NCBI GenBank assembly: GCA_016748015.1
Contig: JAAOMT010000531.1
Coordinates: 186,001-250,000, forward strand
DNA length: 64,000 nucleotides
From: Geosiphon pyriformis uo1
Lineage: Eukaryota > Fungi > Glomeromycota
Reading direction: 5' to 3'
The notes beneath the pieces were generated by a model. It had not been told where the DNA came from. It worked only from the letters and a program-made list of their open reading frames with translations, and ran no database searches. The first letter of the stretch is position 1; each line of letters starts with the position of its first letter. This document shows positions 10,800-61,458 of this stretch, one piece after another. Both the position numbers and the translations under genes were made by a program.

Positions 10800-12070
10800 T
10801 TATATCTATTTGAAAATAATATAAATAAACTTTTGATTTGAAAATAATATAAATAATTTCTTATATATTATATAATCTATTATAAAAAAAAAAATTTATA
10901 TAATACTAAATAAATTTTTAAAATTATTAATTTTATATATAAATTTTTACTTAAACTAATTAAACTTTATTCAAACTATATTTAAAATTTATCTAAAATA
11001 AATAAATTTTAATTTAAACTGTTTAAAAAAAGAATTTTATATTGTTTTAATTTTAGTCTAAACTACTTGAAATTGCTATTATTACAAATTTCAAGATTTT
11101 ATATATAAAGTAATTTTAAATTTAAAAAAAAAACATGTTTAATAATTAAATATTTAAAATATATGAAAAAAAAATTAATTAAACAAAAAATAAATCTATA
11201 AATTTTTTAACAAATATTAAAAAATTATTAAAATTTTGAAATAAATAAAAAAATTTATTAAAAAACATTATTACTTAAATATATAAATAAAAAATTTTTT
11301 ATAAAACTAATTAAAACTTACTTAAATTAAATAGATTAAAAAACTAGTTTTTTATATTTTAAATACTTTTTATAAATTAAATTTAATATTATTAATTAAT
11401 AACAATAATTTAATTAATTTTTTTTATTAATATATAATATTCAATTATTATCTAATATAATACAATTATTAAAAGTTTTAAATCAAATATAATTTATATA
11501 TTTTTTATATATAATTAAACATAATTTTAATTTATATTAAATTATGTTAAATTTATAAAAACAAACTTATTTAAAACAGTTATCTTATTTAAAATTAAAA
11601 TTAAAACTATTATTATTAAAAATTAAACCAAATATATATATATATATATATATATAATAATTTTATTTATATTAAATTTAATATTAAAAAATTACAATTT
11701 TCAAAGTATTATTATTTTAGTATAAATAAAATTATTAATAAATATTTTTAAATTATTATTAATTATATTATTTTTATTAATTACAAAAAAATTTTTATTA
11801 ATTTTAAATTTAAAAAAGAAAAAATATTAATAAATTTAATTATTATAACTAATTTAAACAACTTAAATTTTAAAACAGTTAATTTAAAACTAATTACAGA
11901 ATTAATAACAATAATAACAATTACAAATATTTTATTATTAAAAATACTATTAATCACTTTAAAAAATAAAAAAGTTATAACTTTTTTATTTTTTGCTTTA
12001 ATTATAATTATAAAAATACAAAAAAAAAATTTGTTTATTTAAATATAATTAATTAATTAATTAATTTAAA
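10800..12070. repeat. AT-eroded ghost repeat, same families as 19.3, 21-22 and 30.5 kb
   Basis: 11480-11580 resembles 21795-21895. 11970-12030 resembles 30460-30520 and the reverse complement of 19290-19350. Almost no G/C remains. Confidence 0.55.
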
Positions 12071-12189
12071 AAAAACTTTTTTCTCTCCTTCATTCCAAAT
12101 TCTTAAAAAAGAGTCTTAAGTTTTTTGAAAAAAGAAGTTTTTACAATTCAGTATGAAAAATCCAAACTGTTTCTGCTTGATTACAAGGT

Positions 12190-14004
12190 CATTGTTGGTC
12201 CCAGTGTTGCTGTAATAAAGAAGTCTGCTAAAAGCTTTAGTGCTGATACTGTTAATAAGAATGTTGCCTTTAAGAAAAAAAAAAGAGCGGTGTTTTAAAA
12301 AACGGTGTAGCTTAGAAAATGGTTTTGTCTAATAAAGCAGTTGGTAGTTCTTGGGGGTCTAAAGCTGGGGATACCACTGAATCCGACAGTGTGGACATAG
12401 AAGAGGAGTTTTTGATTAAAGAGATTAGTGTGGATTATGGAGAAAAAAATGTTTTAGAAGGAAAAAACATTAACTAAATACTTAAAAGGTCTAGGGTGGT
12501 TACTAAGCAAGCTTTGGGTAAACCTCTGGGCAAAATTGATTTTTTGGGCAACAATGATGATGATAATGTTCTGTTGGATGTTCCTTTAGAACTTTCTTCT
12601 TCTTTGAAAAATTTGGTTAATGTCTCTGTTCGGAAGTTATTTGCTTTAGATATTGGATTAGAAAAAGTGATTAGAAGATCCTCTCAAGAAAAACTTTCTG
12701 TGGTCAGGAAATTATTTTCAGGAATCAATGGTTTTGGAAGGGCCTCTACCCTCTCAAAATTTGCTGGGATTATCAAAGTGACATTCACTTCTGAATTAAG
12801 CTTGGCACAGACTTTAAAAAAGGCTGAGGATGCAAAAATCTTGGTTAACACCAATCTCAAGAAATCAACTGGTCAATTGGATTGGGCTGTAGTGGTGAAA
12901 AAAATCCCAGTTGAAACATTAGCTAAGGCTGTGTGTGCTGCGCTTTCTGAATTTGGTTCTATTGTGTCGATCAAAATGTAATTGGTAGGACTATGGCAAA
13001 AAACTGTGGTTAAATTCGCCCAATTGAATTAGGCTGATTTGGTCGCAGCTAAATGGTCTATCTTGATCGGGAAGGATGCCGTGAGAGTGGCTAAGGCTAA
13101 TTTGGACAAGGAATCATGGGACACAAGGGATCAGCATAGGGTTTTGCTCTATACACTGCTGATGGGCACTAATGCACATAATATCTGGAACTTCATTGGT
13201 TCTGTGAATGGGAAAACATGTGTCATCAATTGACACCCTGTTATGTATACCCGGGCCAGGTGTGCTATTGTTTGTTTTGACTCTGCTGCTTCAATTAATA
13301 CTGTTATGGAAACTACATTTGTCTTAAAGGGTGCCAATCTGTGTTGGGCTTACTTGGGTTCTGCTAAGTATGCTAAGTGTGAGAATTTGGGTTATACATC
13401 TCTGAATTGTTTTGTGAATATGAAAAATTCTCCTGGTGGACTGGCTCACAGGATATTGTCTGAGAATGATAAAAGCAAACTGGCTTTTATTTATGCAAGA
13501 TGCTCTGCTCTAATCTCTCACCCTGTGTCTTTTGGTGGTGTTTTATGGACCAATATTGTTGATGGGTCTTTTTTCCTTTCTTTCTCTGTAAGTATTGACT
13601 CAGGTTCTTCTGGTTTCTCTTCAGGAATAAAACCTATCCCAATGGTGTCTGTAGAATTAAACGATAGGTTTGCTGCTCTTAAGCATAGTCTTGCCAGCCT
13701 CGTAGAACACATTGATAAGTTGGCTAAGAGGTTGGACTTACTTGGGCCAATGGTTTCCCAGCCTAGCTCTGGATGTTAGCCATTGGTGACCTCTTCATCA
13801 CAGAATCAAGGGGCAGATATAGTGATAAGTGAGGGTTCAGGTGTGGCCACTGGTGGTGAGATTATTGTGAGAGTGGTGGTTTTTAACTCTTTGGTTATCT
13901 CTAAGTTGGAAAAAACTCTGAACAATCTTTCAGTCACAGTTATGGGCCTCTTGGCCAAAATTAACAATGCTGGTCTGGTTCCTGTAATTCATTCTTCTCA
14001 ATGA
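12190..14004 (+). pseudogene. LINE ORF1 (Gag-like, degenerate CCHC knuckle), premature stops
   Basis: Fragments 12496, 13039, 13243 and 13783 share one frame. The knuckle remnant YAKCENLGYTSLNC corresponds to YTKCEQFGHISNMC in copy 2. The 5' boundary is approximate. Confidence 0.8.
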
Positions 14005-17000
14005 TAAGTCTGGTTTGGAAAATTGCAACATGCAATGTTCATGGTATCAATGTTCTTGCCAAGCAGGAAGATGTTGTTTGTTGGCATATGGATTCTGGAA
14101 ATATGATTTCTATTATTATGGAGACAAAGTTGAGGTTTAATGCCAGGCCTTGAATTATAAACAAATTTAATGGTGTGAGAATATTCTCTTCTGGTTTAAA
14201 CAAAGAGTTTCTTGGTGCTGGGGTGGCAATTATTATGAACAACTTCTTTGTCCATCATGTGTCTAAAGTTGAGGAGATTCCTAGTCATTTGGTTTCAGTT
14301 CAGCTTCTTTTCAAGGGCAAATTGTCAGTAGTGATTTTGGGCTTATATGCAGGTGTTTTTGCTGAAACAAGGTTTGGCCAAGCTTGCAAAATCAACTCTA
14401 TTATTGCCAAGACTGCTAATTCTTCTACATTTGTGGTTTTGGGTGGTGATTTCAATAAGGATGGATCCAAAAAAAGTGCTAGTTTTAAGTTTTGTTCGAA
14501 TTTGGGGTTGGTTAACTCTTTTAGTGGACATTCTTTGGTCAAAGCTTCTACTTGGGACAATTCCTGGGGTTCCATGAAGATTATTGACTACATTTTTGTG
14601 AGCAAGAATTTGGCATCCATATTGGCTGGTCATGAAGTTTCTCCTGTCTCTGAATTCTTTAACACTGATTATAATGCTGTTCTGGTCTTGGTTGGTTTGG
14701 GTGGTCTCTTAGATGCTCAGCTCAATGATGAATGTAAGCAGGCCAATAAAGATAAGTGGAAATTCAAGATCAAGGATGCAGATGTTAGTAAATAGACACA
14801 CTTTAGGGAACATTCATTAAACAAGTTTCTGGAATATATGGATGAATTCAATGCTGCAAAGAACAATAAAAATCTGGATATTATGTGGAAGATTTTTAAG
14901 AAAGTGGTTATAAGCTTAGCTAATAATGTGTTTTTTAAACAATGGTTTAGCAAGTTCAATTGTCAAAAAAATAAGCAGTCTTCAAAATTTTTTAGCCTGA
15001 AATTGTTAGTAGCCAAGCTAATGAGGTGTTTGAGTTTAGATCAGAAATCAGAAGCTGTTCATCTTTTTAAGGTGTGGTCTACTCTTGATAGCAAGGGGGC
15101 CTCCAAAGCGTGCATGATGTTTGGTGATAATGAAAGCAGAAAGAGCATTCTTTAACACCTATCAAGAGTCAAGAAATTGTACAGAAAGTCCAAATACTAT
15201 AAGTCTAGGGTGGCCAGAAATACTTCAATCAGGAAGACAATAGACAAGTGCATAAAAAACTTCAGCTCCAATAAGAGGCTTATGATCAAAAGTGTTTTGG
15301 AAAGGCCATTCAGGAAGATAGTGTTGGACCATCTGATTGTAAATGATAAGTTAATTTTGAAACCCAAGGAAGTTTTATCTGCTGTTGATGGTATCATAGA
15401 AGATTGGACAAAAAAACGAATCACTTCTATCTCTGTGTCTGCTCAATAGTATAGCCAATATGCTCTCTTGGACTATGTCAGTGATAATGCATTTTCAAAT
15501 GTCATGGGTGTAATTGGATTAGATGAGTTTCTTTTGGTGGTCAATGAACTGCCTAATGGAAAAGCTGCTGGCATTTCTGGTATTCCTAATGAGCTTTGGA
15601 AGCATGGTAATGTGCAGGTTCTGAGTGGTTTGTTGGATATTCTCAATGTTTGTTTAGAGTTGGGTGTGGTTCTTCTGCAGTGGAAACAAGCCTGGATTTC
15701 TATGATACTGAAACCATATGACTGGAAGGGAACTCTTACCAATACCAGACCTATAGCCTTGGTTGAGACAGCCAGAAAAATACTGTTAAAGGTTCTTTCT
15801 AACAGGATATCTCTGGTGTGTAGTAAATTTGATGTTTTCCATGGTGATAATTTCTCAGTTTTGAAGGTTATGTCTACTCAAACCCTAATTTTTACCATTG
15901 GCTCTATTGTTGAGGATGCACTGGAAAAAAATAGAAAGCTGTGGCTGGTACTTTAGAATATGCAAAAGGCTTACGACTCAGTTGGATGGCCCCATTTGAG
16001 GAAAAGTTTAGTTAGAATCAAGATGTGTTCCTGTTTTATTAAGTTTTTTGGAAACATACACAATGGTCGGACCAACCAAGTGATGACAGACTTTGGGCTT
16101 ACTGGGAAGTACACTGTTCATGATGGGTTGGATCAAGAGGAAGTCTTTTCACTATTGCTGTGAAGAATCTTCTATGATCCTTTGCTTTGTGAGGTCAAAA
16201 AGCATAAACAATTGTGTGAATATAGATTGAATTCAGAATTTATTTCTAGGACTGGCAGAGCTAATTTCAAGAGTGGCAAAACATCCTTTTTTGCAGCTGG
16301 TGCTTTTGTGGATGATACTATTTGGGTTGAAAACTGTTTGGCAGCTACACAGCACATTTTAGACATTGTAAGTGATTTTTTCTTGATCAATGACATTGCT
16401 ATTAATACAGACAAAACAGTTGCTATCTCTATTAATCAAAGGACCAGAGAGGTTTCATTGTCTATCAGTGGTTCCAAAATCTCCATTGCCAAAAAGGGTG
16501 AATTTTACTATTACTTAGGGATTTTTATTTCTATGGATGGCATGTCTAAGCCAAGCTTGGCCAAAGCTCATTCAGACGTCAAGTTTTTCTCTAATGTGGT
16601 TTTAAGGAAAGCCATTACTAAGAAGCAATTTCTGTATTTGGTCTCTGCTGTTCTGCAGCCCATAATTGGATATAGGTTGCAGTTTAGCTGTGTTTCCTAG
16701 GGTGTGTGTGAAAAATGGGACAAAATGTTAAGAAAGAGTTTAAAGCTCAAGGCCAATCTGCCTAAGGATTTTCCAAATGAAACTTTGTATCATCCTGAAT
16801 TTTATGGCTTAAAAACTTTTGAGCAAGTGATGTCTGAGAATATGTTGGCTGGTCTGGTTAAATTCACTAATGCTAACAGAATCTTTGGTGAATTATTCGA
16901 ACACAAAGCATTGGAGTTATAGGCTGCTAGCTAGATACCTTGGCACCCACTCAAATTTCTGGTCAAGTTGTCAGTCAATTCTGCAAATTGCTTTTTGGCT

Positions 17001-18689
17001 GGCACTACATGTGCTCTCAAATTGTGCAATCTGTTATTGGGCAGTGACCTGCCTAATGTTTTTCAGGCCAGAAATTGGGTTGCTGTCTTGGATGTGCTTG
17101 GTTTTGAAGTCTATTTGGACATGGTAAAGTCTCTTAAAAGATATGGTGTGGTGTTTGTGAACCAGCTTTTGGATTGCCACGGCAAGTGTTTTATATGGAA
17201 CACTTTTCGCAGATCGAAGAAGCTGGATCCTAAAAGCCCAATTCCTGCCTAGTTTGCTTCTTTGGTCAAATTTATTGTTGGTGGCAGCTTGTCAAATAGT
17301 GAGTTGTTGTCTTCCTGTTCTGATCCCACTGGCTTTTCTTGTGACTTTAGTTATGTTGGTGAGTGTCTACTGAATTCTGAGTTGGACTCTATACTTGTCT
17401 ACACTGATGGTTCTGTAAAGAATTTGGGTTCATTACATGCTTGTGGTGGTGCCACCACCTATTTTCCAAATGTGGACACTGGTATTGGGATTAAGGTGGA
17501 TAGGTTGCTGTCGTCAACTTTGACAGAGATGCAGACCATTGCACTTGTTTTGAAGTGTGTGCCCATTTCTTGTTCAGTTGATTTATACATGGACAGCCAA
17601 ACTTCACTAAACATATGTATATCCGCCAGTAGTATGTCTGGTCCTGATTTCCATAACAAATGCTGGATTGAAAAAGAACATATTTGCCGTGTCATTGCAA
17701 GAAAAAATTTGTCGGTTATGTGGAATAAGATTAAAGGCCATTCTGGTGTGGTTGGAAATGAGTGTGCTGATTTCTATGCTAATACAGCTGTCACCTCTAA
17801 GTCCTTCCTACCTATTGCAATATCTTATTAATTTCTTGTTGTTGAAGGCAGATCTGTTTCTGAAAATGCTTGTTATTTTGCCAAAAAATTGTTCAATGCT
17901 GTTCACACCATTGGTTGGGAAGCCAGATGTGTTGGTAGCATTGTTGGTGTGGATCTCAATGACCATTTTGATAAGGCCAGGACATTTTGTGTTTGGCATC
18001 CCAATGGCAGGATCAAATCTGGTTACATGTGCACTGCATCGGCAACACTTTGGTCATAACTCATAAAAGTGTTCTACTATCGCTTGCCTATGACCAAGAG
18101 GAAAAAGATGTATAATCCAAGTTATCCAAGTATTAACTGCATTCAGTGTGGTTTGGTGGAGAACTCTGATTACGTTTTCTCTTATGATCATGATGTAGAT
18201 GTTAGAAATACTTTGTTATCTGATGCTAATTTGGAGTGGGATGTGTTGCTAAACACTTCTGCTGATGAGAATGCAATTGCTGGTTTGCTAAAAGAGACTG
18301 CTTTTTCTATGGACTTGTATATGTTGCTGGCTAAGGGTTTTATACTGAAGAGTTGGGTGGTTGACACGGTGGGCCAGTTGGGTGTTGGCTCTAATGGGGA
18401 TACATTGGTTATCAATTTCATTTGTCGTTTTGCTAAGAATTACAGATTTGCCATCTGGCTGCCTGCAACTAAGTTGAGAGCCTACTATGAGAAACATAAT
18501 CTCTTGCTAAGTGATAGGTTACCTATTCCTTCAGTGTTTGGTTTAGCTTTTTTGTGGACAGCTGGGATGATCCAAGATTTTGGTTTCAAGCTAGATATCC
18601 ATGTGTGTTTTGGATTGCATCTATGTTTAACCAGTTTGGATTTTGGTTTTCTCTGTGGCATCCCTGTAGTGGGGTGTTTAGATGTGTAG
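14001..18689 (+). pseudogene. LINE ORF2 (AP endonuclease, reverse transcriptase, RNase H, C-terminal Cys/His motif), ~1560 codons with >=12 in-frame stops
   Basis: APE motifs: WKIATCNV, ETK, GDFN, IDYIF. RT motifs: KAAGISGIPNE, RPIALVE, KAYDSV, GLDQ, GAFVDDT, YLG. RNase H motifs: VYTDGS, DSQ, KGHSGVVGNECAD. C-terminal motif: CIQCGLVENSDY. All listed fragments are in one frame from ATG 14001. Confidence 0.92.
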
Positions 18690-18829
18690 TGCTGCCTTGA
18701 TTGGCTTGAGTGGCTGGTCACATGTAGACAAGGCATGAGCCACACTTAATTTAGGTTAATTTTGATCTATGTACTTAGGTAGTGATTGGGCTGCAATCAT
18801 AAAAAGCTTAATAAAAAAAAAATTTAAAA

Positions 18830-19537
18830 TAATAATTAAATAATTATATTATTTTTTAATGTTTTTAAAACAAAACAAATTAAGTTTTAATAAAGAATTT
18901 TTTTAATTATAAGTATAAAATTATTAAAATTAAACTTGTTAAAAAAAAGTATTATTATATTTAAGATTATAATAATATTATAATTTATTGTTTTGTTTTT
19001 GATTTTATTATTGATATTTGTAAAATAATTTTTTTAATATATTTTTAATATTAAAAATGCTTTTAAAGTATTTAATAAAATTGTTATTATTAAGTTAAAA
19101 TTTATTAGTCTATAATAATATATTATTTTTAAATTTAAAAACTTTGAATTGCCAAATTTGTTTTTATTTATTAATTAATTTTAATAAAAAAAGAGTATTA
19201 AATTTTTTTTATAAATTAATCAATTTTTTTGATTATACAATCTTTAAAATTAAGAATATAATTATTTAAATACATAATAAACAATTTTAATTTTTTTTTA
19301 TTTATAATTATAATTAAAATAAAAAGTAAAAAAGTTGTAAATTTTACTTTTTTTTACATAAAAAGTTTTTTGTTGTAAAAACAATTAAACAAAATATTTT
19401 AATGCTATTTTTTTTAGATATTAATAATACAAAGTAATTTTTTTTAATTAAAACTTTTTTTAAAAAACATATTAAAATTAATTTTAATGTTGTTTTTGTT
19501 TTTTTTTAAAGTTTTAAAGTTTTAAATAACAAATTAG

Positions 19538-19569
<32 letters not shown>

Positions 19570-22500
19570 CTTTTACAAATAGCCAAAAAGAAATAATTAC
19601 TTTTTTTTGTTATTATTATACTAAATTTTTTATGGTTTTAAATAAAATTTTAAATAAAATCTTTGTTATAATAACCAGCTTTTTTTTTAATATAGATAAC
19701 AATAATAATAAAATTAATTACTAGTTGTATTACCAAAAATAATGTTTTTTAACAGATTTTTATTGGTTTTAAAAACAAAATAAAATATGTTTTTATATGT
19801 GTTTTTAACTAATTAAATTATTAAATTATCTAATTTTAAAAATTAAGCTAAAACAAAATCAATTTTTTTTTTGTTTTTTAATTATATTATATTTAATAAT
19901 TTAAAAAACAATTATTAGTTATTAAAATTTACCAAATAAATAATATTTATTTTAATGTTTAATGTTTTTTTTAAGATTAAATTGACTTATATTAAGACTG
20001 TTTTTTAATTTGTAAATTATTTTTTAACTTTTAAAATTTCTAAATTTTTAGTGGTTTTTGAGTTTATTTTTTTTTATTGGTATTATTTTGTATAATATGT
20101 TTAAAAGTATTATTATTGTTAATATTAAAAATATTTTTAATGTTTTTAGTAAAGTTTTTTAAATTATATTAAAATTTATTAATATTTATATTATTGTTTA
20201 TTTTAAGTTTTTTAATATAATTATAACTATTTTTAATTTTTAATTGGTTTTAATAACAAAAAATAACATTAAATTTTTTTTATTAATTAAAAAAAATTAT
20301 TATCTTTTATAATATATTTAAGATCAAGTTAATTAAATTTTTTTTTAACTGTACTGTCTTTAAAATTAATAATTTGATATTTTAGATTAATAGTTATATT
20401 TGTTTTATTTTCTGTTTTTTTAATTTTATTTTATAATTATAGTATATTATTATTACTTTTGAATTTAAAAAAATTTGAATATTATAATTATTAAAACTAA
20501 TACTTTAAAAAAATGTTATATTTAATAAAAGAGTTTTAATTGTTATTATTGCTTAAGTATTAAAATTTAGATTATTTAATTACAAATTATAAAATATTTT
20601 TTCTTTTTTTTTAAGTTTAATTTAAGTCTATAAGTAGTTTTAGGAATTTTAAATTATATTTTATTAATATTAAATTTTATTTTAAAACTTTTGTTTTATT
20701 AATTTTTTTGTTATTGTTCTTTTGGCTCTTTTTATTATTGTTGTTTTTATAAATTTTTTGTTTAATTTTTACTTATTTTTTTGAAATTTAAGTTGATTTC
20801 TTTGGTTTTATTAGTTAAATCTGTTGTTAAATTTATTAATATTTTGATTATTTTAATTACTAAATTGCTTGGTGTTTTTTTGTTTTATATATTAAGTTAA
20901 AAATAATTATATTATAATTAAAAAAAATATTAATACTTTTTTTGATAAATTAAATAGATTGTATAAATATATTAATAAGTTAAGAGCTAAGTATAATATT
21001 AATAATAATTTGGTTATTGATAAAACTTTTAATAAAATAAGAGCTTTTTAAGAGTTTAATTTTCTAAGATTAAAAAATATATACCAAATAATTAAGTAAA
21101 ATAGTTAAAAATATTAGTATTTTGATTATATATAAAAATAGATTTTTTTTAAATTTAATATAATTTAAATTTAATTAAATTTGTATATTTAATTATATAT
21201 AAAAATATATAAGTTATATCTAATTTAGAATTTTTTGGTAAATTTATTATTGCTATTTTTAAATTCAAAAATATTTTTAATACTATTATTATTAAAGCTA
21301 ATACTTTAAAAAAAATTATATTTAATAAAATATTTTTAAATAAATTATAAAATTATTTTTTTTAATTTATTAAATTATTTTTTAAATTATTTGTTATGTT
21401 TAAAGTTTTTATAAATTAATTTGTTAACTTGGTTTTTTATATGAAAATTATTATTTTATTTATTTTATTTTATTATGTTTAATAATAATTTCGAATTTAA
21501 ATTAAATTTTTTGAAATTTTGTTTACAAAAATTGATTTATTTAGTAAATTTGTAATTAAATCTATTAGGTTAATAATTTAAATATATATATTTTTTTTAA
21601 TTTTACGAGTGAGGCCCAAATGCAAGCTAGCACAATACATCAAACTAAGTGATCTAAACTAGGCGCAAATCATGCATTTTCTACACGTGACCAGCCACTC
21701 GGAATATTTATTAAAAATAAGCTTTTTTTAAAAATAAACTCAATTTTTTTCTTAAAACTTAAATTAAATTTTATTAAAACCAAATAAATTTTAAAGTTTA
21801 TATATTAAATTTTTTTATATGTAATTAGTTATCTAAATTATTTTAAATTATTTTAAATTAAATTTATAAAAACAGATATTCTATATATAATTACAATTAT
21901 TATATTATTATTAAAAATCAAATCAGTCAACTAAATAATAATACTATTTATATTAAACTTAATATTAGAAGTCTAAATTTCTTAAAATATTATTAAACTT
22001 TCAAAAAATTAAGTTTTTATTAATTATATTATTATTACTGTTTATATTCTTTTTTTAAGACTTATTATTTTTTTGCTTAAGTAATTAATGACTTTTTTAA
22101 AATTTTGACATTTTTTTACAGTTAAAATTTTATTTTTCATCTTAATAAATTAAAAATAAAAAAACACTAATTAGTTTGTAATCAAAAAAACCAAAATATT
22201 AATAAACTTAATAATAAATCTAATTAATAAAACCAATACAACCAACTGAAATTTCAAAAAAAACCAACTTAAAACCAATTATAAAATTAATAATAACAAT
22301 AATAACAATCAAAAAATCAAAAGTTTTAACATAAAACTTAATATTAACAAAATAAAATTCAAAATTTTTGGATTAATTACAAACTTAAATAAAAGTTTAA
22401 AAAAAAGATAAAAATATCTTGTAGTTTAAAACCAAATATTTTATGTTTTAATACTTAAAACAACACTAATAATTAAAGATTTTTTATTAAATACAACATT

Positions 22501-23250
22501 TTTTTAAAATATTAGTTTTAATAATTACAGTATTTAAAATTTTTAAAAAATTAAAAATAATAATAATATATTTTAAAAAAAATTTAAAAACTAAAGAATA
22601 AAACAAATATAGTCATAAATTAAAATACTAATTTGCTAATTTTAAAAACAATACAAGTAAAAAAAAATTTAATTTAGTTTTAAACATATTATTAAAGACA
22701 ATAGTTTTTTATTAATTAAAAAAAAATTTTTAACATTATTTTTTATCATTAAAACTAATCAATAAATAAAAGTTATTTAAATAGTTTTAAAACTTTTAAA
22801 ATATAAAACAACATATTATTATTAACTAATAGACTTTAAATTGATTTTAAAAACTTTATTAATAAATATATATAAAAAATATTATATAAAACAATAACAA
22901 AAACAAAAGCAAAAAATAAAAAATTAGCAAGTTAAATCTAAATAATAATATTTAAAAAAACTTAAAATATAAATTCTATATAAAACAATTTAAATTGTTT
23001 TTAAATACTAATTTTAAACCAATAAAATTATGTATAAACTGAAAAATAGTTTTAATATAAGCCAATTTAATCTTAAAAAAGACATTAAATATTAAAATAA
23101 AAATTATTTATTCAAAAAACTTTTAATGATTAATAATAATTTCTTAAGTATTATTAAAAAACAAAAAAAAATTAGCTTTAAGCTTTATTTAATTAGTTTA
23201 AACTTTAAGATTAAACATTTTAATAAGTTAATTAGCCAAAAAAAACAAAA
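18830..23250. repeat. AT-eroded ghost repeats, including an inverted pair (~20300-21250 minus vs ~21750-23200 plus)
   Basis: The reverse complement of 20481-20700 aligns by eye with 22321-22520. The reverse complement of 21120-21230 aligns with 21795-21895 and with 11480-11580. The family is unidentified. Confidence 0.6.
21591..21702 (-). mobile_element. Solo, 5'-truncated LINE 3' end (~110 bp) with poly(A)
   Basis: Reverse complement reads ccgagtggctggtcacgtgtagaaaatgcatg...ttgggcctcactcgtaaaattaaaaaaaa, homologous to the 3' UTRs of copies 1-3. Confidence 0.85.
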
Positions 23251-23252
23251 AC

Positions 23253-26200
23253 TTTTTTATTTATTTAATGAGTAAAGTCTAAATATGGCCTAATACTATA
23301 CATCACATAAATAATCTAAACTAGGTGTGAATTATGCATTTGCTATATGTGACCAGCCACTCAGACCAATCAAAACAACAATAAACACCTATACAAACAG
23401 AAACTATGTTTCTAATATCCAAGAAAAACAGACAAGACTTACAAAATACAAAACTAATATCAAACACATTAGCAATACCCAATAATCTAATTACACCAGT
23501 TGAGAGTACTACTAGAAGACCAGAAACTGAGATGGGAACAGAACTGTTCTGTAGGATCAAGCCACTTTTTTCTATAATAGCCCAGTATTTAGTATGTACT
23601 AGCCAAATATTATTCCGGAAAGCAAACCAAAATTTGTGCACAAAAAATACAATATTCTGAGCTGCAACCTTAAGGTTTTTAAAAATATAAACAGATTTAC
23701 AATACCAATTATTGAAAACAAAGCCTTTACACAAAGCAGTACCAACAACAATATCAGAAATGCAAGTACACAACAACTGTGATACACAAAAAGAAGAGCA
23801 AAATAAATCCAAGTATGTCTCTCAAGCAGATACATGAACTTTTATTAACTGTGCACAATCAGCAGTGTCAAAAGAGCAAGAAAAAACATGGTCCAAGACC
23901 TCAACATCTCCACAGAACAAACACACTATACTGAAGTAACACTTATTATAAAGTTACTTACATACTGTGACAGAAAGATAATAATACAGTGCCTTCATAA
24001 AATACAAACAAAAGCCAGCAGTGCGTGCACTAGTAAAACCAGCAGTCAAATAAGAATCAGAATGCCATACCAATAAAGATCTGGACCAATCAACATTAGC
24101 ATGCAGACCATCCATCAAGACATAGAAACCAGAACCAACCTCCCAATGCACACAATAAATAGATTGGAAAATATTATAAACAAAATGCTGAGAATTATTA
24201 GAAACTGCTGTGCCATCAGCTTGAAGAAAGTGTTTACTGACCACATGAAGTAGACACCTATCTGAGAAAGCAGCAGCCTTAGCAAAAGCATTAGCATGCT
24301 TATTGCTGAAGACACCAGAATGACTCTTAACTTTAATCCAATTAATGTCCAAATTCTTGTGATGAATAACATTAGCAATATAGTGATGCTTAATCCAACA
24401 CCAATTCTTAAAATCTGGACAAGCCAACATAAACTCTGATTTGCATGCATTCAGAGCAGCTTGGCTGTCCAAAAACAAGTCGACAGAATGAAAAGAAAGA
24501 ATACACTTAAGAGTCAGAGCAATGGCCTGCAATTCTGTTATCATAGAGAAAACCAAACCAGAGACTTCAACCCCCAGGCCCAAATCAATGTCTTCAAAAA
24601 AACAGTAGTACCAGCCATCACACCAGAAGTTCCCAGACTACTTAGAAATCCATCTGTGTACACAAAAAAACAAGCATTATTAACTTGCAATAAATTAACA
24701 CTAATGACACCAAAATTATGACATCCAAAAGTAAAGAACAAGCAGAAGAAAAAGCCTTACCACCAAGAAAATAAACAGCAAGCTCAAACCAGATGGGAAC
24801 AGGACCATGAGGGTCCAATCACTTTTACTACTTAAAAGTTGTCTAACTGAAAATGGCATCATGTTTGTTATACAGCTGGTTCACAAAAGTGACTTCATAA
24901 TGCCAAAGAGAGGAGACATACTTAAAATAACTAGGCTTACTAAGAACAAGAGACATAGGAATACCACTTCAAAAACAAAATGCACTGGCTGGAGATTCAC
25001 CCAAGAACAAATCACAACCAGAAAAAATGTGAATCATACCAGCCAAAAAATTGTTTAAGAAGTTGATTCTAACATGAGCCAGAAAATGTAAAAGGTGGTG
25101 AAAACACCAGCTAAAAACCTGAAAATCATAAGATTTGTGGAAAAATAACCAACCCAAAATACCCAATAAATTTGCAAAAGAAACAAGAGAGACCAATTTG
25201 CTTTCGGTCTAAATTTGTTCAAAAGTTTTTAAACCATACAATGAAGAATGATGAATTGCTTCAGTGGGGAAATTATGTGGGAGACCAGACCTAGACTTTA
25301 AGTCCTTGCAAATCATAGCATCCTATTTACTACAAACACTAATAAGAACAAAACTGAATTAAGTTTTATAATTGACAATAGAAAAAAGAACTGCTAAAAC
25401 CAAATATGCAAACTGTTTATTTAAGATTGCCTTTCTTAGAACAAGATTGACAAAAAACCGAACATTCAAATATGTCTTAGCCAAACTAGGTTTCAACAAG
25501 CCCTCAAAAGACAAAAAAATACCCAAATAATGATGAGGTTCCTTTTTTTTGGCGATAAAAATAGGTGAGCCACTAACAGTTAAATAAGGATTAGAAACCC
25601 AGCAGTTAATAGGGATGACTACAGTCTTGTTATTATTTATGGAAATGTTATTTAACTTAAAAAAATCATTAGCAACATTAAGAATGTGTTGTATAGCAGC
25701 CTGACTATTACCAACCTAAATTGTATCATTGACAAAAGCACCAGCAGCAAAAAATGATGTTATCCTGGCCTGAGATTCTGCCTGGCCAGACTTGAAAACA
25801 AAATGAGAGTTCAACTTGTAACCATATACACCCTCCTGTCTTTTAACTTTACATAGAAGCGAATCATAGAATATGCACCAAAGAAAAAATAAGAATACTT
25901 TCCCTTGGTCCAAACCATCATGAACACAATACCCATCAGTTAAGCCAAAGTTTGTCATCACTTTGTTAATGTAACTATTGTGAATACTACCAAAAAATCT
26001 AATGAACTTGTCACACATCTTGATTCTAACCAAATTCCTCTTAAGATGTTCCCAACCAACAGAGTCATAGGCCTTATGTATGTTTTGCAAAACCAGTCAC
26101 AGTTCACGGTTCTTTTCCAAAACATCCTCAACCACTGAGCCAATAGCAAAAATAGGTGATTGTGTCATCATCCTTTTTAAAACAGAGAAATTGTCTCTAT

Positions 26201-29200
26201 GTAAAACATTATAAGTACTGTAAGTTAAAGAAATTCTATCTAAAAGAATTTTGGAAAGAATTTTGCAAGCTGTTTCAATCAAAGCAATAGGACAGGTATT
26301 TGTAAGAACACCTTCCCATTCATATGGCTTAGGAATTATTGAAACTTATGCTTTCCTCCAAGATCCAGATACTAATTCATGAGTTAAACACAGATTCAAG
26401 AACACAGAAAACATATTCAAGACTGAGTTGTCACAGTGTTTCTACAATTCATTAAAGATGCCAAAAAGACCAGCTGCTTTTCTATTAGGCAGATTTAAGA
26501 CCACAGCAAATAATTTGTCAGAACCAATTAAACACATCACATTGAAAAATACACCATTAAAAACATAATCCAAAGGCTGATATTGGCAAATCCAATTATC
26601 AGAGATATCGAACACCACTCTATGTTTCCTAGTTCAACTCTCCATAATCTTATCTATTTTAGACTTAACCAAATCAGGCTCCAAAACCAACTCATTGTCT
26701 ACAACTAAGTGATCCAATACTACCTTGTGAAAAAGATGTTCCAATACACTTCTGATGATATGACCTTTATTTAATTCAAAACTTTTTATTCTACTGGTAA
26801 TGGTCTGTTTAATGTGAGATTCCTCAGCACACTTGAATTCCAGTAACTTGGAAGAATGGTAAAATTTCCTTGCTTTTGCCAATCCAGAACAAATAGCATC
26901 AAAAATAAAACCTGAAAGAAAAAAAGACTTTATTTCAGCTGCACCACTAGAGTCAAGCCTGTCCCATGTACCCAACAACAAAGCAAAATTTTCACTCGAA
27001 ACCAAATGAGAAGCTTTTACCAGCCTAAACACCAGCAACTTCAGTTTATGAAACTTAAAAGACACATTGGTAAAAACACTGTCATAATCTTTGAACCATT
27101 TTCTTTTAAATGTCCCATTGGTAGAAAAAACCATGACCCTATGAACAATATCCCATATTATATCCAGATCTAAAGACTTCTCAGCTGCTGTAAATGCACT
27201 TGAAAGCATAGCAGCATTAGCAGCTGTGGGATCCCTAAATTTACACCACTTCCTTTCATTGGCACTTTTAACATCAAATTTCCAATAATCTTTATTTACC
27301 TGCTTACACAGTGAAAACAGCTGAACATCTAACAAACTATCCAGACTCACAAAAACAGAAACAACTATGTGATCAGTATCAAAATAATCTACAACACTAG
27401 TTATATTGTAACCCACCATTGTATTGACCAAATTTAAGAAAATAAATACATAATCAATTGTCTTAGCAATTCCACAAGAATTGTACCACGTAGGTATCTT
27501 AGCAAATGAGCTTCTGGCCAAAAAATTGACCAGACCCAAATCAAAGCACTTTTTAAAGCTGGCATATTTATGAGATTCATTCTCATTGAAATCACCACTA
27601 AGAATAACAAAAAAAGATTTATTTATAGCCTTTGCAATAAGAAAATTGATGTCGCCAGCCTAAGAGAACCAAACTACCAAAGAAGCACCAGCATACAGCC
27701 CCAAAATTAACACAGAAAGCCTATTCTTAAAAAGCAACCTGACAGAAAGGATCCAACCAGGCACTTTAGAAACTTTGCACACATGACGAGCCAAAGAAAT
27801 GTCCATAATAATAGCAATGCCAGAATCTAGGTAATCAGAATTCACCTTAGAAGTGAAGACATGAACACCATCAAACTTGTTCATAATCCATAGATAAACC
27901 TTATCCTTCAATTTAGTCTCAGTAACAATAGAAATCAAATTGTTCATTCTTTTATGCCAATAAATTATATCACCCTGCTTTGCAGGATTGTTCATCTCTC
28001 TGACATTACATGTAGCAATTTTCCAAATTAAATCAATCATTGAAATAAAAGAGGAGCTAATAAACCTAAACTAAAACACAAAAAGTCTAATCTTGTTAAT
28101 ACTAAACTGACTGAAACTTCCAGAGCTATTATCTTCAATTCCAAACCACCTATCTTGGTAATAAGAATCTTTGAGCTGCTCAAACTTAGTTCAGAAATAG
28201 CATTTCCAACCACTAAAAGAGAAGGAGAAGAAAGCACCACCACACTATCCACAGCCATATTTGAATTTAAAGCTGAGTTCAAGAGAGAAACAGCAATAGG
28301 GGAGGGGACACAAGATGGAGATAACATTGGCATTAACTCCACAAAGTTCAATTTTCTCAAAATCTCAGAAACCTGATCTGACAAAAGCTCCATGGAGCAC
28401 TCCAAAGAAGCCATGCAGTCAGCCAAACTAGAATCATCGAGAGGATTGGAAGCCAACACTAAAAGTTTTGTACTTAAAAATAAACCAGTACCAGAAAAAA
28501 CTGATAAAGCCACACAGAAAAGAGAGCCACCTGCAATTTGAGCCCAAGTTTTTCCACCAAAAGATGCTGGACAAGCAACCAAAGTCTGTTTTCTCTTATA
28601 AATATTAACTAGACGGACCTAATCCTAAGAGAATACCATCCACTTATGATAAACTTCAGAAATCTTACCAACTGAACACATATTAGAAATATGACCAAAT
28701 TGTTCACACTTGGTGTAACAAGCCAAAGAAAAACCAGCCCAATGCAAATTCACACCCTTATAAACTGGAACAAAATCAATAGCAACCAATTTGGATGCTT
28801 CATTAGCAAAACACACTACTGCACATTTATTATACACATATGAACTGGGGTTATGACCAATAAAACAAGTTTTTCCACCATATAATTTTATCAAATCAGA
28901 AAGATCATGTGCCATAGTGCTTATTGGCAAGGTGTACAATAAAGTCTGATGGCAATCTTTTACTACTCATGATTCTTTGTCATTCACAACCAATGCAACA
29001 CAAACAGAATCTTTACTTATAAGAACTGACTATTTGAAAGCAACTGAGCTAGCCATATCTGATGACACAAATTTCACTAAAGCTTTTTGCCAAAGCCCAA
29101 TTAGTTGCATTCTAATCAAAATTACTTGACCAAATTTAAAGAACACTGACACAATTACTGATTTGGAAAGATCCACTGAGATCTTTTTGACTATCACTTT

Positions 29201-30110
29201 CTGATCTGAGTGGCTGTTTGGTTTCCTAACATTAATATTTACCAAAAAATTTTTACTGATTGCCATTTTCTTGGCTTTAATTAAACTTAATTCGAAATAA
29301 AAGAAGATCTAATGATGTCTGGGAGTTTTGAAGGAGCAAATGCCCCCAAAACCATCGACCTTATAAAAAAAATTTTTTACAGCAATTAACTTGTCACCAA
29401 TAGTCTTGTCAGGCAAGACAGAAATTCCAATATCCAATGCGAATAACTTAACTGAATCAAAAATATGCTTATCTGATGCATATGATCTGACAGAGTGTAA
29501 TTTTTTGGAGCCTGCAAACTTAGGAGATGGAAGAGCCATCATATCATCATTATCACTTAAAACATTGAATAAAAGAGTTTTCGGGGATTAACTTAATACG
29601 TATGTACAAATACATGTTTTCCTGGAAGTAATGTCATTTTCTATGTCATTGATTATAGAAGTGTCTGAGTTAGCATAACTAGTTTCCTCAGTGATGGTAT
29701 TTTTTATGTTCTCCAAGTCTGACAGATCACTCATACTACTTGCCTCACTTTCCATTTTGCTGCCCCAAGATCTCGAAAACTTACCATCAGTATCACTAAT
29801 ATTAGCCAGGCCCAGTGGACTAGCAGATGAATCAACCACTCTGATGCTGACTTTGAAATTCTTAGGCTTCTTATAAGATGTGCTACAAGAGTACACACTA
29901 TTAACTCTCTTTTTTTTGCATCAGGCTGGGTCCTCAAATCAGCAGAAGTAGATCCAGAGCTACCAGCAACAGGACTCGTCAGTTTCATGTTCATGAATAA
30001 AGATACATTTGAAGAAATAGTTGAAAGTATGAAGGGAGAAGGAAGTAGGAAAAACTTTTTTTTCAGCAATATCTTGCTCTCATTGTGATCCCAAAAACTT
30101 TATTTTTTAC
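23253..30110 (-). mobile_element. Near-full-length LINE copy 2 (diverged subfamily), inactivated by stops and a few frameshifts
   Basis: Minus-strand ORF2 starts at 28040 (MIDLIWKIATCNV; IDYVF; DTDH; KAYDSVGW; GAFVND; VYTDG; KSHSGVFSNKHAN). ORF1 fragments span 28037-30069. The 3' UTR (gaccagccactcagaccaatc at ~23351) and poly(T) at ~23253 mark the 3' end. Confidence 0.92.
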
Positions 30111-31531
30111 AAGAAGAAAAGTTGTATTTAAAACACTAAAAAAAAGTTTTAATATTTTAAAAAGTTAATATTAGATATAGCAAAGATTTAAAAGAGTTTT
30201 TTTAAATTAATTTGATTTTTCTAAGTATTTTAGTAACAATAAAAAAAAACAAAAGAAAATATAACTTAATTATTGGTTTTTTATCAAAAATTTTGGAGTT
30301 TTTTGAAAAACAAAAATTATATTAAATAGATTTTTTTAAAAAAAACTTTAAACCAATAAAAAAACAGTTTATTATTATATTATTTAAAAAAAAACTTTTA
30401 CAAAGTGCTGTCAAGTAGTTTTAACAGTTATAAGTGTATTATTGATAAACATTTTATTAAATACAATTTTTTTACTCTTTGCTTTAATTGTAATTATAAA
30501 AATATAAAAGAAAAAATTTATTTACTAATATTAAATTTAATATAAAAACCAGATTTTAAATAAGTAAAATTGTTTTTAATAATAAAAATTTAAATTACTG
30601 TATTTATAAAATAAATATATTAAACCTGTTTTTTAATTCTTTATTATTAACTTAATGTGTTCTTAATGTAAATTTAAGTAACTAGTTATATGTAAAAAAT
30701 ACATAAATTATATTTATAATTATTATTATTATGTAGTTATAGTAAATAGCAATTAAATTATATTTTAATAAAATTGTTGTTTAGAAAACTTATTCTTTAT
30801 AAGAAGAATATAAAAAAATATTGTTAAACTTAAATAAGTTGTTAAAAATAAGAAATTAAATAATGTAAATTTTAACCTAACTATTAATAAAAAACCAAAA
30901 TTTGAAATAATAAATTATTAAAAAAACAACAAACCAAGCAACATAATAAAAAATATACATAATAAAATCAATCAACTTAATATTTTATGTTTCAATTAGC
31001 AAAACCTAAAAGTAAAATAGATTTATTAGTGACCAAAAAAAATTATAAATTTTTAAAACAACTTTATATGTAGTGTATTTTTTAAAAGAATTAATAATTA
31101 AATTAATAATGAAGATAATAATAAAGACAAGAAATAAATCAAAAATCATATTATAAATAAATAAGTAATTAAAATTAATATGCTAAATTAATATAAATTA
31201 ACAAAATAAGCATTTTTAATGTTTAAAAATACATAAATATGTATTTATTTTATAAAATTTAATATCTTTTAAAGTTTAAAATAAAGGCACCAGAATCGAG
31301 TACAACTTTTATTGAAACGTGCTGCAACTATTTGCAACTATTTTTTTTAGAGGGGTTTCGGCCCCAAAATAATTCTATATTTGTTTACAAGTCAATTTTT
31401 TTATTTGACAATATGTTCTAAAAGGGAAAAAATTCTTTTTTACTGCTTTATGTTGTTTATTACATCCAAGACTTTGTAATGTTATTTGATAAAATAAGAA
31501 ATTAAAGATCGGAGTTTCGTATACTTTATTT

Positions 31532-32675
31532 TTGATATTTAACCCACTTTTATAGCCTCTTGAAATAAAATTGATAATCGGTATTTAAATTTAGAATTAA
31601 ATTCTTTCATAGATTTTTATAATTTATTTTGAAAATAGGCATTCCAATTGAGTAGTGATCTAATAAAAAGATATCAACCGAATATAGATAAATATTTCTA
31701 TTTTAAAAAGATGTCTAGTTTGTATTTTCTACCCTAAATTACTAGCTCTAAAATATATTTAAGTGGGACAAACAGAAGGAGAACTATTTGGATTAACAAT
31801 CCCGGTAAATTCCTCAGTAGGGAAAGTGCAAGTATCCCCGGCTGAGGTTAAAGCTGTAGTCAGGAAATGATAAGTTCCAGTTTTAGGCGATTCGCCTAGA
31901 TTCAACTGAAAATAGGGCGTATAGAAAGTATCTGCGGTCGAGATTGAACCACTGTATTGACTTTTTACTAGATTACCCGAAGAATCAACTAAATCAATAT
32001 TTGTGACAGTTTTAACATCACTTGATCCGACGTTAAAAGATACTTGGTAGCATTGACCTAGATTAAATGAAAGTGGAATAAATTAGAAACTGCCAAAGAA
32101 ATTTATGATAGATTATTGATATTTGAAAAATACCATTGGTGAAACTTAGATTAGGCTGAACCNNNNNNNNNNNNNNNNNNNNTGAAATTAGTTGTCAATC
32201 CTTAATATTATCAAAAATGATGAACCCACCGCTGCTTGAATTATTAATATCTATACCATAGAAATTATTTCGTCAATATTTTGATCTCCTTAAAAGGACT
32301 TCTTTGTTTCATGAATTCTTGTACTTTTTTCTAAGCCACATATATGTTTTGTCCATTTCTATTTAAAATTACATATTTTGATTCAAATCCAGCATTATGT
32401 TTGGAAGTTAAAATTAAATTTGGGAATTATCAAGAAAGAAGCCAAGAGAAAGTATTTTTTATTTATTATTAAAGACCAAATGTATCTATTGATAGTCAAC
32501 ACTGCCTGATTTCTTTTAAAGTTTGCAAAAAATCATTACTCTATCTATCTGTTTATCTATCTATTTATGATAATTTGAATGAGAGAACAGAAAATCATGA
32601 TATATTTCTAAACTTGGAAGAGATCGCGATAAATAGTGAAGTTACTAACTATTCTCAATTTATTTATGGAAATCA
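31532..32675 (-). repeat. Left arm of inverted segmental duplication (partner 41117-42989)
   Basis: Near-identical reverse complement covering the upstream region, gene and 3' flank. It differs by a handful of substitutions and a ~60-bp indel (42782-42842). Confidence 0.88.
31759..32162 (-). CDS. Small secreted Cys protein, inverted paralog (exon 2 32057-31759, intron 32133-32058, most of exon 1 hidden by N gap)
   Basis: Reverse complement of 41895-42274/42295-42698. The C-terminus is NSSPSVCPT* versus NSPPSVCPA* in the + copy. Confidence 0.78.
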
Positions 32676-37432: not shown

Positions 37433-39452
37433 ATGGCTGTTGTTGAAGATATTAAACGTCAATTAGAGGTGGCTACGACCCATTATGAGAGATGCGTGTA
37501 GGAGCTGAAGGAGTTTAGGAAGGGTGAGAAGGGAGATAGATTAGAAGAGTTGAAGAAGAGGCTGAGAGAAGAGGAGTATGTGAACGAAAAGGAAATGAAA
37601 AAGTGGATAAAAGAGAAGGAAGAGCTGGAAGAAGAAGTGAAGGAGCTAAAAGTAGACAAGAACAAGTGGATAGAGGAGATGCAAAAATGGGCAGAAAAAC
37701 TACGTGCAGCAACAGATGATACAGGTAACTTGAGACATAGAGTAGATTTGTAAATTCACTTTCCCATCCATACCATCTATATTACTATTCATTCATTTTG
37801 TAATCATATGCGTTTTATCGAAGGAATATCCATATTTAAGAGAATATTTGGTGTATAACGCTTATCTCTTTCTATTTCTATGGTTATTCTAGAACACCTT
37901 GCGAAGCGTGCTAGACTTGACATGCCTAACAACACCACACCATTTCTAAAACTTCTCTGTCGTCCCTTCGATGAACCAATTACACGCAGCAATCTTGAAC
38001 ACTGTTTTACCTCAAAGTTACTTCAAAAATTGCCAGCTGAACCCTGTCTTTGCCGGAGCCTTGAGGATTATCTTGTACCTAAATGTTCAGAAGCTCTCTA
38101 CAATGTTCCTAGATTGAGTGCAATCGTCAGTACCATTTTAAGCAAGTCCTTCACAGAGTGTGTCGGACAAGAAGAACGGACCACAGATGGTATCAATGAT
38201 CACATTTTGGACATGATTACATTTTTCAGCCAATATATCGCAACTCCATCGCTAAGATGGAATCGTAATGGAATAATAAAAGATACGAGTACCATCACAG
38301 AAAACAAAGCTCGGCTAGATATCACAGTTTATTCCAACGACTTGCTTGTAATGATTGGTGAAGAAAAAGATGTTAAGGGCAAGTTATTAATCACAGCAGA
38401 ACAACTGGATGATTATTTTCAATTTTGGAATCCACTTGCCTTCCGTAACTTACCATTTGTTATAGCGTTTGCAGCGGGGTGTACAAGTTTGCAATTTTAT
38501 TATCACTACGTGGACGATACAACGGGCTTGAAACCAAGACGTGAGGCAATTGGTGAACGTCTGATGCTTGAAAGTGTAAACCGAGGATTCAATTATCGAG
38601 CACTTCAGTACACAATCAATTTTATTCGGGTCCTTCAGACTTTGTCTCAAGATCAGTACATTGAAGCTTCAATATTAAAGCTATTCGATGAGGTCAAACG
38701 GTCAAATGGTAGTGTTATAATATTCCCCGAAAATATCATTAAAAAAATAAATAAGTCAAGCATTGTTAATCTAAAATTCCATAAAGAATTTTACGAAAAC
38801 ACGCTTCCATACTTAGGGCCAATCAGGGTTCTTGATTATAAAGTTTCAAGTTACTTAATGATAGTAAAATTGACTCCAGTTGGCACTACCGTAATTCCTA
38901 AACGTGAACCGAGCTGCGAGATGCTATATGGTATGTACTTGTAACACTAGAAAAACTTCATAAGATGAACGTCGTCCATCGGGATATTTGCTGGGATAAT
39001 GTTTTAAACTCCAGGATGTTAATTGACTTTGAAGAAGCTGCTCCCTTAGGAGGTTTAAGGTGCAGTGAGATAAAAGAATTTCGACTTACGGTTAGACATA
39101 TTTGCTAATTGTTACTTTATAAAGAACCCCATTGTTTCTAGGAGCTCCAGAATTTAAATCGGGGCGAGACTTGTGTAGCGCTGCAGGCGATATATGGATG
39201 GTTGGAAATCTTTTCAAACATTCTAGAATTTACAACCATATTCCACTTTCTTCATCCGCTCAAAAGTTTAGGAAAAAATTGATGAACGAAAATCCTAATA
39301 GTCGACCGACTGCAGATGATGCTCTAAAAGATGGGTGGTTTAATTTGCAAGAGGAACAATTATCTATAATGCAAACTTTGACTTTTAAACACCCCATATT
39401 AAATGCACTGATGTACAATTATGTTATAAAAGAATTTCAATACCAAAAGTAG
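37433..39452 (+). pseudogene. Crinkler/RHS-like protein: coiled-coil header + restriction-endonuclease-like domain + protein kinase; inactivated
   Basis: Exon 1 (37433-37724) has an in-frame TAG at 37499-37501, followed by intron 37725-37892. Exon 2 has AKRARL and the PD-(D/E)xK-like RLDITVYSNDLLVMIGEEK. After a frameshift at ~38905-38912 come VHRDICWDNVL..LIDFEEA, then GAPE, DIWMVG and NPNSRPTADDALKDGWF. Confidence 0.78.
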
Positions 39453-40824: not shown

Positions 40825-41110
40825 TGTTCGTGACCTGGCGGTTGCTGGCTCTGGAGCCTCTGCTCGCAAGGAGGGTTTTGATCATGGCTTGTCGGTGTGT
40901 TTTGGTCTAGCGGTAGGTTCGCAGTTCGTTTCGAATGAATTTTGTAGAGCTTTCAGGATGGTTAGTGCGTCGCGTTTGAATATTGTGTAGTGTAGCCTTG
41001 ATTGGCCTGAGTGGCTAGTCACATGTAGACAAGGCGTGAGTTACATCTATTTTTAGCTGTATTGTAGTAGGTAGTGGTTGGGCCGCACTCGTAAAATAAA
41101 AAAAATAAAG
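40825..41110 (+). mobile_element. 5'-truncated LINE (~290 bp: last ORF2 codons + 3' UTR + poly(A))
   Basis: gtgtagtgtagccttgattggcctgagtggctagtcacatgtagacaaggcgtgag...ttgggccgcactcgtaaaataaaaaaaa closely matches copy 1 at 18684-18810. It is a GC- and CpG-rich island in AT-rich flanks. Confidence 0.87.
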
Positions 41111-41766
41111 TTATTTGATTTCCATAAATAAATTGAGAATAGTTAGTAGCTTCACTATTTATCGCGATCTCTTCCAAGTTTAGAAATATATCATAATTTT
41201 CTGTTCTCTCATTCAAATTATCATAAATAGATAGATAAACAGATAGATAGAGTAATGATTTTTTGCAAACTTTAAAAGAAGTCAGGCAGTGTTGACTATC
41301 AATAGATACATTTGGTCTTTAATAATAAATAAAAAATACTTTCTCTTGGCTTCTTTCTTGATAATTCCCAAATTTAATTTTAACTTCCAAACATAATGTT
41401 GGATTTGAATCAAAATATGTAATTTTAAATAGAAATGGACAAAACATATATGTGGCTTAGAAAAAAGTACAAGAATTCATGAAACAAAGAAGTCCTTTTA
41501 AGGAGATCAAACTATTGACGAAATAATTTCTATGGTATAGATATTAATAATTCAAGCAGCGGTGGGTTCATCATTTTTGATAATATTAAGGATTGACAAC
41601 TAATTTCAAAATTTGGTTGAGTCTTCACACTTGTAAATTTTAACAAACTAGTCTTTAATTAATCAAGCCATTCCAATATGATTTATTATAAAGTCGTGAG
41701 GTGAAACGAAGTTGTCCACATAATTCAACCCATTCACCTTTAAATCTTTTCTAAAGAACTCCAAAA

Positions 41767-50332: not shown

Positions 50333-50370
<38 letters not shown>

Positions 50371-61424: not shown

Positions 61425-61458
61425 CTAGCGGCGGTTCGAGTGGGGAACCATTCGAACC
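61422..61458 (+). promoter_or_regulatory. Putative stop-codon readthrough signal: UGA-CUAG + 8-nt spacer + 11-bp GNRA hairpin
   Basis: TGA CTAGCGGC GGTTCGAGTGG GGAA CCATTCGAACC. The stem is 61433-61443/61448-61458 (10 Watson-Crick pairs + 1 G-U) with a GGAA loop. Confidence 0.75.

Follow-up and report, generated by a model that had tools for sequence, protein, structure and literature searches.

Fungal repeats are known to lose cytosines in several ways, and we compare these here with the decay of transposons in a 64,000-nucleotide stretch of the Geosiphon pyriformis uo1 genome (Glomeromycotina, allied to arbuscular mycorrhizal fungi; contig JAAOMT010000531.1, positions 186,001 to 250,000; hereafter the window, numbered from its first letter), above all of a long interspersed nuclear element (LINE) at 12215-18822, called copy 1. 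In repeat-induced point mutation (RIP) of Pezizomycotina (Neurospora crassa; RID- and DIM-2-dependent), C:G>T:A changes in repeats lie far above other changes, reading frames are kept but stop-filled and AT-rich blocks are the end product, all features shared by Geosiphon. RIP is episodic and strand-coordinated, and mutates near-identical duplicates over about 400 bp; it acts in premeiotic episodes on paired repeats, whereas the Geosiphon copies show no episodes. RIP also prefers CpA, as stated in PMC12543289 and 10.1101/115501, whereas in Geosiphon CpG leads and CpA, CpC and CpT are affected equally.

The closest match in working principle is the Dim2-dependent mitotic mutator of Zymoseptoria tritici, likewise gradual and repeat-bound, which is described as confined to methylated repeats and >95% C>T (PMC8016269); >98% of its transitions are given as lying at CpA, with CpG spared (PMC8016269), whereas in Geosiphon all contexts are hit and CpG most. 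Transposon hypermutation at CpG/TpCpG in Basidiomycota shares CpG as main target and a rate raised by a 5' T, but the rates given in those studies are not raised outside CpG (PMC3318451, PMC4352252), whereas Geosiphon non-CpG C>T runs at about 30x T>C. Within the same subphylum, Rhizophagus irregularis and Gigaspora margarita are described as carrying CG methylation on transposons, which predicts CpG loss; the accounts, with CpG-only calling in Gigaspora, describe no RIP signature and leave a non-CpG excess unaccounted for (PMC8647823, PMC13443276). RIP is reported absent from Gigaspora and Mucoromycotina in work cited in PMC8647823, and a 1,239-genome screen, whose species table does not contain Geosiphon, gives RIP-like signatures as confined to Ascomycota (PMC12543289). 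Our literature search found no report of the present pattern for Geosiphon or other Glomeromycotina, although the species' genome paper or the cited Gigaspora no-RIP paper could mention it.

A stop-filled LINE without frameshifts in ORF2

Copy 1 is a dead LINE with the following parts (ORF, open reading frame; UTR, untranslated region).
12215-14004, plus strand: ORF1, gag-like, from blastx to family models, contigs and translation
14001-18689, plus strand: ORF2, with an endonuclease-like N-terminus, reverse transcriptase, RNase H and a C-terminal knuckle
15735-16430 (aa 579-810), plus strand: reverse transcriptase domain, Pfam PF00078 RVT_1, E 1.8e-8
17391-17789 (aa 1131-1263), plus strand: RNase H domain, Pfam PF00075 RNase_H, E 6.4e-11
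18690-18822, plus strand: 3' UTR and poly(A) tail (poly(A) at 18813-18822), from the sequence and an alignment of seven 3' ends

In its two ORFs, reverse transcriptase, RNase H and 3' poly(A) the element resembles ordinary non-LTR elements, and 5'-truncated copies are present; what is unusual is its mode of decay. No endonuclease was detected by Pfam in copy 1 (PF03372/PF14529 are present in look-alike clusters of a relative), and no target-site duplication was identified. By blastx to family models, ORF1 starts with ATA where relatives have Met, contains several stops and carries one 1-nt frameshift near 12274, where contigs have one extra A; its TGA overlaps the ATG of ORF2 (ATGA). CpGs are gone from the 3' UTR.

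The original prediction, made from the sequence alone, had described ORF2 as a single frame with at least 12 stops and no frameshift, and this held: translation gave 1562 codons with 12 internal stops and a terminal TAG, and comparison with the subfamily majority protein gave a single high-scoring segment pair with 0 gaps, extra residues occurring at nine places in relatives, each in only 1 of 10. The nine stops it had placed at tryptophan or glutamine all fall in family W columns (14151, 14793, 15447, 16161, 16932 and 17250) or Q columns (15153, 15954 and 16920), while the stop at 17829 falls in an Arg/CpG column and those at 16698 (K column) and 18057 (Y column) require transversions. The missense changes of C>T/G>A type that it named are likewise present: near 16137, GLDQ[G]E shows G>E; the stop at 15954 is followed by D>N; and the C-terminal knuckle carries H>Y near 18171. 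An assembly error is excluded as the origin of the stop at 17250, since a short-read contig of depth 78, difference-free over 17128-17684, carries it too (this run may be the window's own source).

Among contigs of related copies on 12100-18800, 1508 of 1722 variable places were transitions and only 5 were indels (depth-weighted counts that include subfamily differences). Many stops accumulate without frameshift because C>T change outruns indels and other changes more than tenfold.

Cytosine loss in every context in two transposon classes

Two further full-length LINEs in the window were scored beside copy 1.
23250-30100, minus strand: copy 2, of another subfamily than copy 1, with two frameshifts in ORF2
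about 44540-51900, minus strand: copy 3, of the same subfamily as copy 2, GC 0.15-0.19, near the end state, with many frameshifts in ORF2

Ancestral states were read off the residues in the majority among gene models of the family. The LINE search gave 320 protein hits, of which 120 were listed: 10 belonged to the copy 1 subfamily, 82 showed 60% likeness or more to a second majority sequence and 28 others were set aside, and the family spectrum was drawn from 70 models at least 66% alike to the second majority sequence. For the Gypsy gag-protease family, unrelated to the LINE, 120 of 824 hits were listed and compared with two references; all 240 listed proteins, the 120 LINE models among them, carry the name Geosiphon pyriformis. 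In a search of representative sequences, which returned close copies only, the 10 entries looked up of 150 listed were all from Geosiphon pyriformis, and two scans of metagenome contigs brought up no relative, with 32 and 94 pattern matches, none confirmed. Gene models were compared by pairwise pile-ups, using amino-acid diagnostics for C>T in CpA (H>Y, C>Y, M>I), CpC (P>S, G>D/E) and CpG (R>C/H/Q/W) and for the reverse transition (D>G, E>G, K>E, I>T, W>R, Y>H, M>T). Window copies were scored as DNA at codon positions 1 and 2, with CpG removed through the purine/pyrimidine class of the neighbour, copy 1 in the 787 codons common to both majorities. The resulting C>T : T>C ratios are conservative, because majority errors inflate the reverse class. 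As a side observation, the annotated hypothetical proteins of Geosiphon pyriformis include hundreds of dead LINE or Gypsy copies, whose models apparently splice past stops and are in some cases fused to host genes.

In copy 1, non-CpG C:G>T:A changes were found at 52/390 sites, vs 8/791 for T>C (Fisher p = 1e-18) and 7/1355 for transversions. Copy 2 had changed at 97/529 non-CpG C/G sites vs 29/1126 in reverse, a ratio of 8x to whose T>C side subfamily differences add, and copy 3 at 239/400 vs 24/779. The 70 LINE models gave 923/9489 vs 62/17600, and 516/6438 vs 25/13400 in stricter columns (28-43x); with one copy per lineage (21 LINE lineages) the counts were 129/1897 vs 9/4065, and transversions at these C:G sites numbered 7. 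The Gypsy models behaved alike, giving 476/4804 vs 38/14125 and 462/4727 vs 26/14190 in strict columns with the two references; laxer columns gave 19-20x, and the Gypsy ratio spans 19-53x overall. Across all sets, copy 2 excepted, non-CpG C>T exceeded T>C by 14-53x, which rules out deamination of 5-methylcytosine (5mC) at CpG only; an excess confined to CpG, the outcome that would have told against the prediction, did not occur. The prediction's own caveat, that stop codons are biased towards CpA/CpG origins, is dealt with by missense changes diagnostic of CpC and CpT.

CpG was nevertheless the strongest target: arginine in 67 CGN columns was kept in 1219 of about 3900 cells (31%), a hazard of about 0.58 per site vs 0.07-0.10 outside CpG, so that CpG is hit about 6-8x harder. 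Consistently with the predicted scarcity of CpG in the LINE and its retention in the gene called sepH, CpG observed/expected (o/e) per kb was 0.03-0.19 in 14001-19000 vs 0.74-1.29 in 57001-62000. The C>T excess is general to transposons of Geosiphon pyriformis and broader than CpG decay.

Outside CpG the 3' neighbour was nearly without effect (CpA 39/218, CpC 33/235, CpT 35/146; in copy 3, A 51/80, C 64/103, T 27/47), while the 5' neighbour mattered (T 54/213, C 22/130, A 19/133, G 20/188). The flat 3' context, together with the lead of CpG, rules out RIP of the CpA type, and the RIP composition indices were negative for copy 1, with (CpA+TpG)/(ApC+GpT) at 1.42-1.76 and TpA/ApT at 0.63-0.91. 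The two strands were alike (126/681 and 88/534), and the strand ratio was homogeneous across LINE copies (chi2 58.5, df 69; non-CpG only 50.4, df 69). In simulations of whole-element single-strand episodes, chi2 came to at least 97 with 30 episodes and at least 65 with 100, which excludes 30 or fewer such episodes per copy; no same-strand runs beyond chance (neighbours 0.513 vs 0.516 +/- 0.006) and no event clustering were seen. Editing of reverse transcripts (APOBEC type) is excluded because both strands are equally affected, with no one-strand G>A bias and no clusters. Non-CpG load rose with CpG loss across copies (rho 0.58), also among 14 younger copies; separately, the younger LINE subfamily P0014, P0020 and P0008, 83-90% alike, retains roughly between half and two thirds of its CpG arginines and is best suited to dating the process.

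The Geosiphon pattern therefore differs from RIP in two tested features, CpA preference and strand-coordinated episodes. Of the original interpretation, the broad C>T process acting on repeats stands, with targeting likely but not proven, while the label RIP-like in its usual sense is not supported; a 99% identical duplicate in the window also keeps its CpGs. The two members of this duplicate, about 1 kb long and 9 kb apart, retain 15 CpGs and show 8 differences in 980 bp, 7 of them transitions and none at CpG; it is almost unmutated, a single case that may be very young.

Host DNA and the remainder of the window

Two host genes in the window served for comparison.
57104-62228, plus strand: host kinase gene (the predicted sepH), with a Pfam kinase domain and ARM-like repeats
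37859-39452, plus strand: one of a multigene family of host kinase-like genes, 100% identical to a protein with the name Geosiphon pyriformis; the spectrum of this family is ordinary, in a small sample

In the kinase gene at 57104-62228 GC4 was 0.36 and silent CpG was retained, with silent C before G (NNC|G) at 30/87 vs 5/126 in copy 1. Silent-site GC was 26-36% across eight host stretches, and three gene-flanking non-coding stretches had GC of 0.29-0.33 and CpG o/e of 0.73-0.86; a C>T bias of 14-43x would equilibrate at 2-7% GC. Private changes in six host kinase-family paralogues comprised 35 of C>T type, 20 of T>C type, 36 of transversion type and 24 others, the diagnostics giving 2/211 vs 5/475; forward:reverse was 24:11, vs 108:14 in matched LINE groups (p = 0.008). 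One paralogue of 37859-38941, P0122, carried 12 private changes of C>T type and 0 of T>C type, as if this duplicate had entered the same process. The excess is thus seen in LINE and Gypsy, and host composition and one small host family under selection differ from it, so that a process aimed at repeats, with host DNA spared, is likely but not proven. A repeat spectrum equal to that of the neutral genome, the other outcome named as adverse, is opposed by this family in part, the family not being neutral non-repeat DNA.

Four short LINE 3' ends lie within the window.
11415-11545, minus strand: 22/29 scored C/G sites now T/A
21575-21712, minus strand: about 130 bp, with poly(A), CpGs kept
30645-30790, plus strand: 22/30 scored C/G sites now T/A
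40975-41112, plus strand: about 140 bp, with poly(A), CpGs kept

The seven aligned LINE 3' ends form a non-coding decay series: at one extreme CpG is still intact, at the other 22/30 C/G sites are gone. The CpG-keeping end at 21575-21712 is either young or too short for targeting. Between copies 1 and 2 lies an inverted repeat (19778-21239 / 21779-23262; 1.45-kb arms, 77% alike, GC about 0.11), whose spacer holds a young CpG-keeping LINE 3' end. Three near-identical small gene segments, to which the 99% identical duplicate above belongs, at 31532-32675 (minus strand) and 41116-42989 (plus strand), one inverted and two in tandem with N gaps adjoining, reflect a young duplication or partly an assembly effect.

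AT-rich blocks with GC down to 7-15% take up much of the window. That all of them are eroded LINEs was not borne out, as alignment in purine/pyrimidine space was obtained only for copy 3 and the short 3' ends. At 10750, 31250 and 53000, AT-rich blocks free of CpG pass sharply, within about 250 bp, into gene flanks that keep it.

Explanations for the cytosine loss

We consider it probable that repeats gradually lose cytosines that are methylated in all contexts within repeat chromatin, the methylation and its enzymes being deduced from the pattern. Cytosine methylation confined to repeat chromatin would likely set a steady per-site C>T rate, since the methylated cytosines likely deaminate and evade repair. 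Dense methylation at CG (DNMT1/DNMT5 type) may be accompanied by a weaker one in all contexts (DIM-2 type), roughly one sixth as high; deamination would be passive, and old copies would decay into the blocks of 7-15% GC. CpG above other C, and both far above the rest, together with two-strand symmetry and clock-like scaling, fit a slow loss of methylated cytosines, and all-context 5mC decay of DIM-2 type predicts what was seen: every context affected, on both strands, in a clock-like manner. DIM-2 is stated to methylate all dinucleotide contexts (10.1101/115501), the clade of arbuscular mycorrhizal fungi is stated to hold DNMT1, DNMT5, DIM-2 and RID (PMC8298701), and liquid chromatography-mass spectrometry is given as finding 32.5-49.5% of Rhizophagus cytosines methylated (PMC8298701); a 5mC share of 32-49% would be more than the CpGs of an AT-rich genome could account for by themselves.

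Several observations weigh against this explanation. Methylation as such accounts neither for the 2-3x preference for a 5' pyrimidine nor for the excess of GG>AA doubles (100 observed vs 59 expected). Five other non-repeat non-coding stretches have lower CpG o/e (0.34-0.63), and the host control is small: six paralogues and 115 changes, under selection, with C>T still leading 24:11. Furthermore, the family counts come from gene models whose splicing skips stops, and changes are shared among copies of one lineage.

It is possible, if unlikely, that the loss is instead enzyme-driven, through a repeat-directed mutator of Glomeromycotina's own in which a DIM-2/RID-type methyltransferase or a partner deaminase would convert C to T continuously, in all contexts and without a sexual stage; this would be the first RIP-equivalent defence outside Dikarya.

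Less support can be given to a reading in which non-CpG cytosines are unmethylated and plain deamination in silent repeat chromatin (spontaneous, partly from ultraviolet (UV) dimers) goes unrepaired, uracil excision not reaching it or having been lost. The clock-like, two-strand and context-broad pattern would suit it, as would the 5' pyrimidine preference and the GG>AA excess, and a UV share is compatible with the habitat, Geosiphon and its photosynthetic partner inhabiting the soil surface. UV as sole cause nevertheless fails because purine-flanked cytosines (R-C-A) still change (13/106 in copies 1-2, 20/35 in copy 3); GG>AA doubles could also come from the spread of copy ages combined with the 5' T effect, and a genome-wide loss of repair would also strip host silent sites. 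Unrepaired deamination is unlikely.

True RIP or an equivalent, that is, a pairing-triggered mutator dependent on RID or DIM-2 with relaxed preference, acting weakly over very many cycles, appears doubtful. It would account for a transition-only excess in two transposon classes and for CpG retention in the ~130-bp 3' ends, as a length threshold predicts, and the clade is said to possess RID as well as DIM-2 (PMC8298701). Most LINE copies are just 54-62% alike as proteins, which is compatible with such mutation but would also make them poor pairing substrates. Unlike RID-dependent RIP, DIM-2-dependent RIP and the Zymoseptoria mitotic mutator, the pattern has no CpA bias and is strongest at CpG; strand episodes are absent, and the 99% identical 1-kb duplicate, though maybe very young, keeps its 15 CpGs.

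A mutation bias of the whole genome is improbable; in this reading selection or GC-biased conversion would preserve GC and CpG in genes and flanks, and dead transposons would display the raw spectrum. The host family, which is under selection, leans towards C>T with one paralogue at 12:0, and AT-rich blocks extend across much of the window, all as such a bias would have it; but the host silent GC of 0.26-0.36, silent CpG at its expected level and flank GC of 0.29-0.33 would need strong selection everywhere, and the CpG borders are sharp. Equally improbable is conversion of C or 5mC to T by a special deaminase, or by an enzyme that oxidises 5mC, directed at repeat chromatin and mildly favouring TC. 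The ranking TC > CC > AC, GC and the size of the C>T excess would suit it, but a preference of just 2-3x, the lack of clusters and the likeness of the strands are opposed to it.

A non-CpG C>T excess of 30-fold, seen in two transposon classes of a glomeromycotinan fungus, amounts to a genome defence by mutation to which RIP indices based on CpA give a negative score. If the explanation by all-context methylation is true, repeats should carry CHG/CHH methylation about one sixth as high as that at CG, which bears on the roles of DIM-2 and RID in fungi without observed sex; the clock-like pattern itself is no evidence for sexual cycles. Transposon ages based on divergence would come out inflated.

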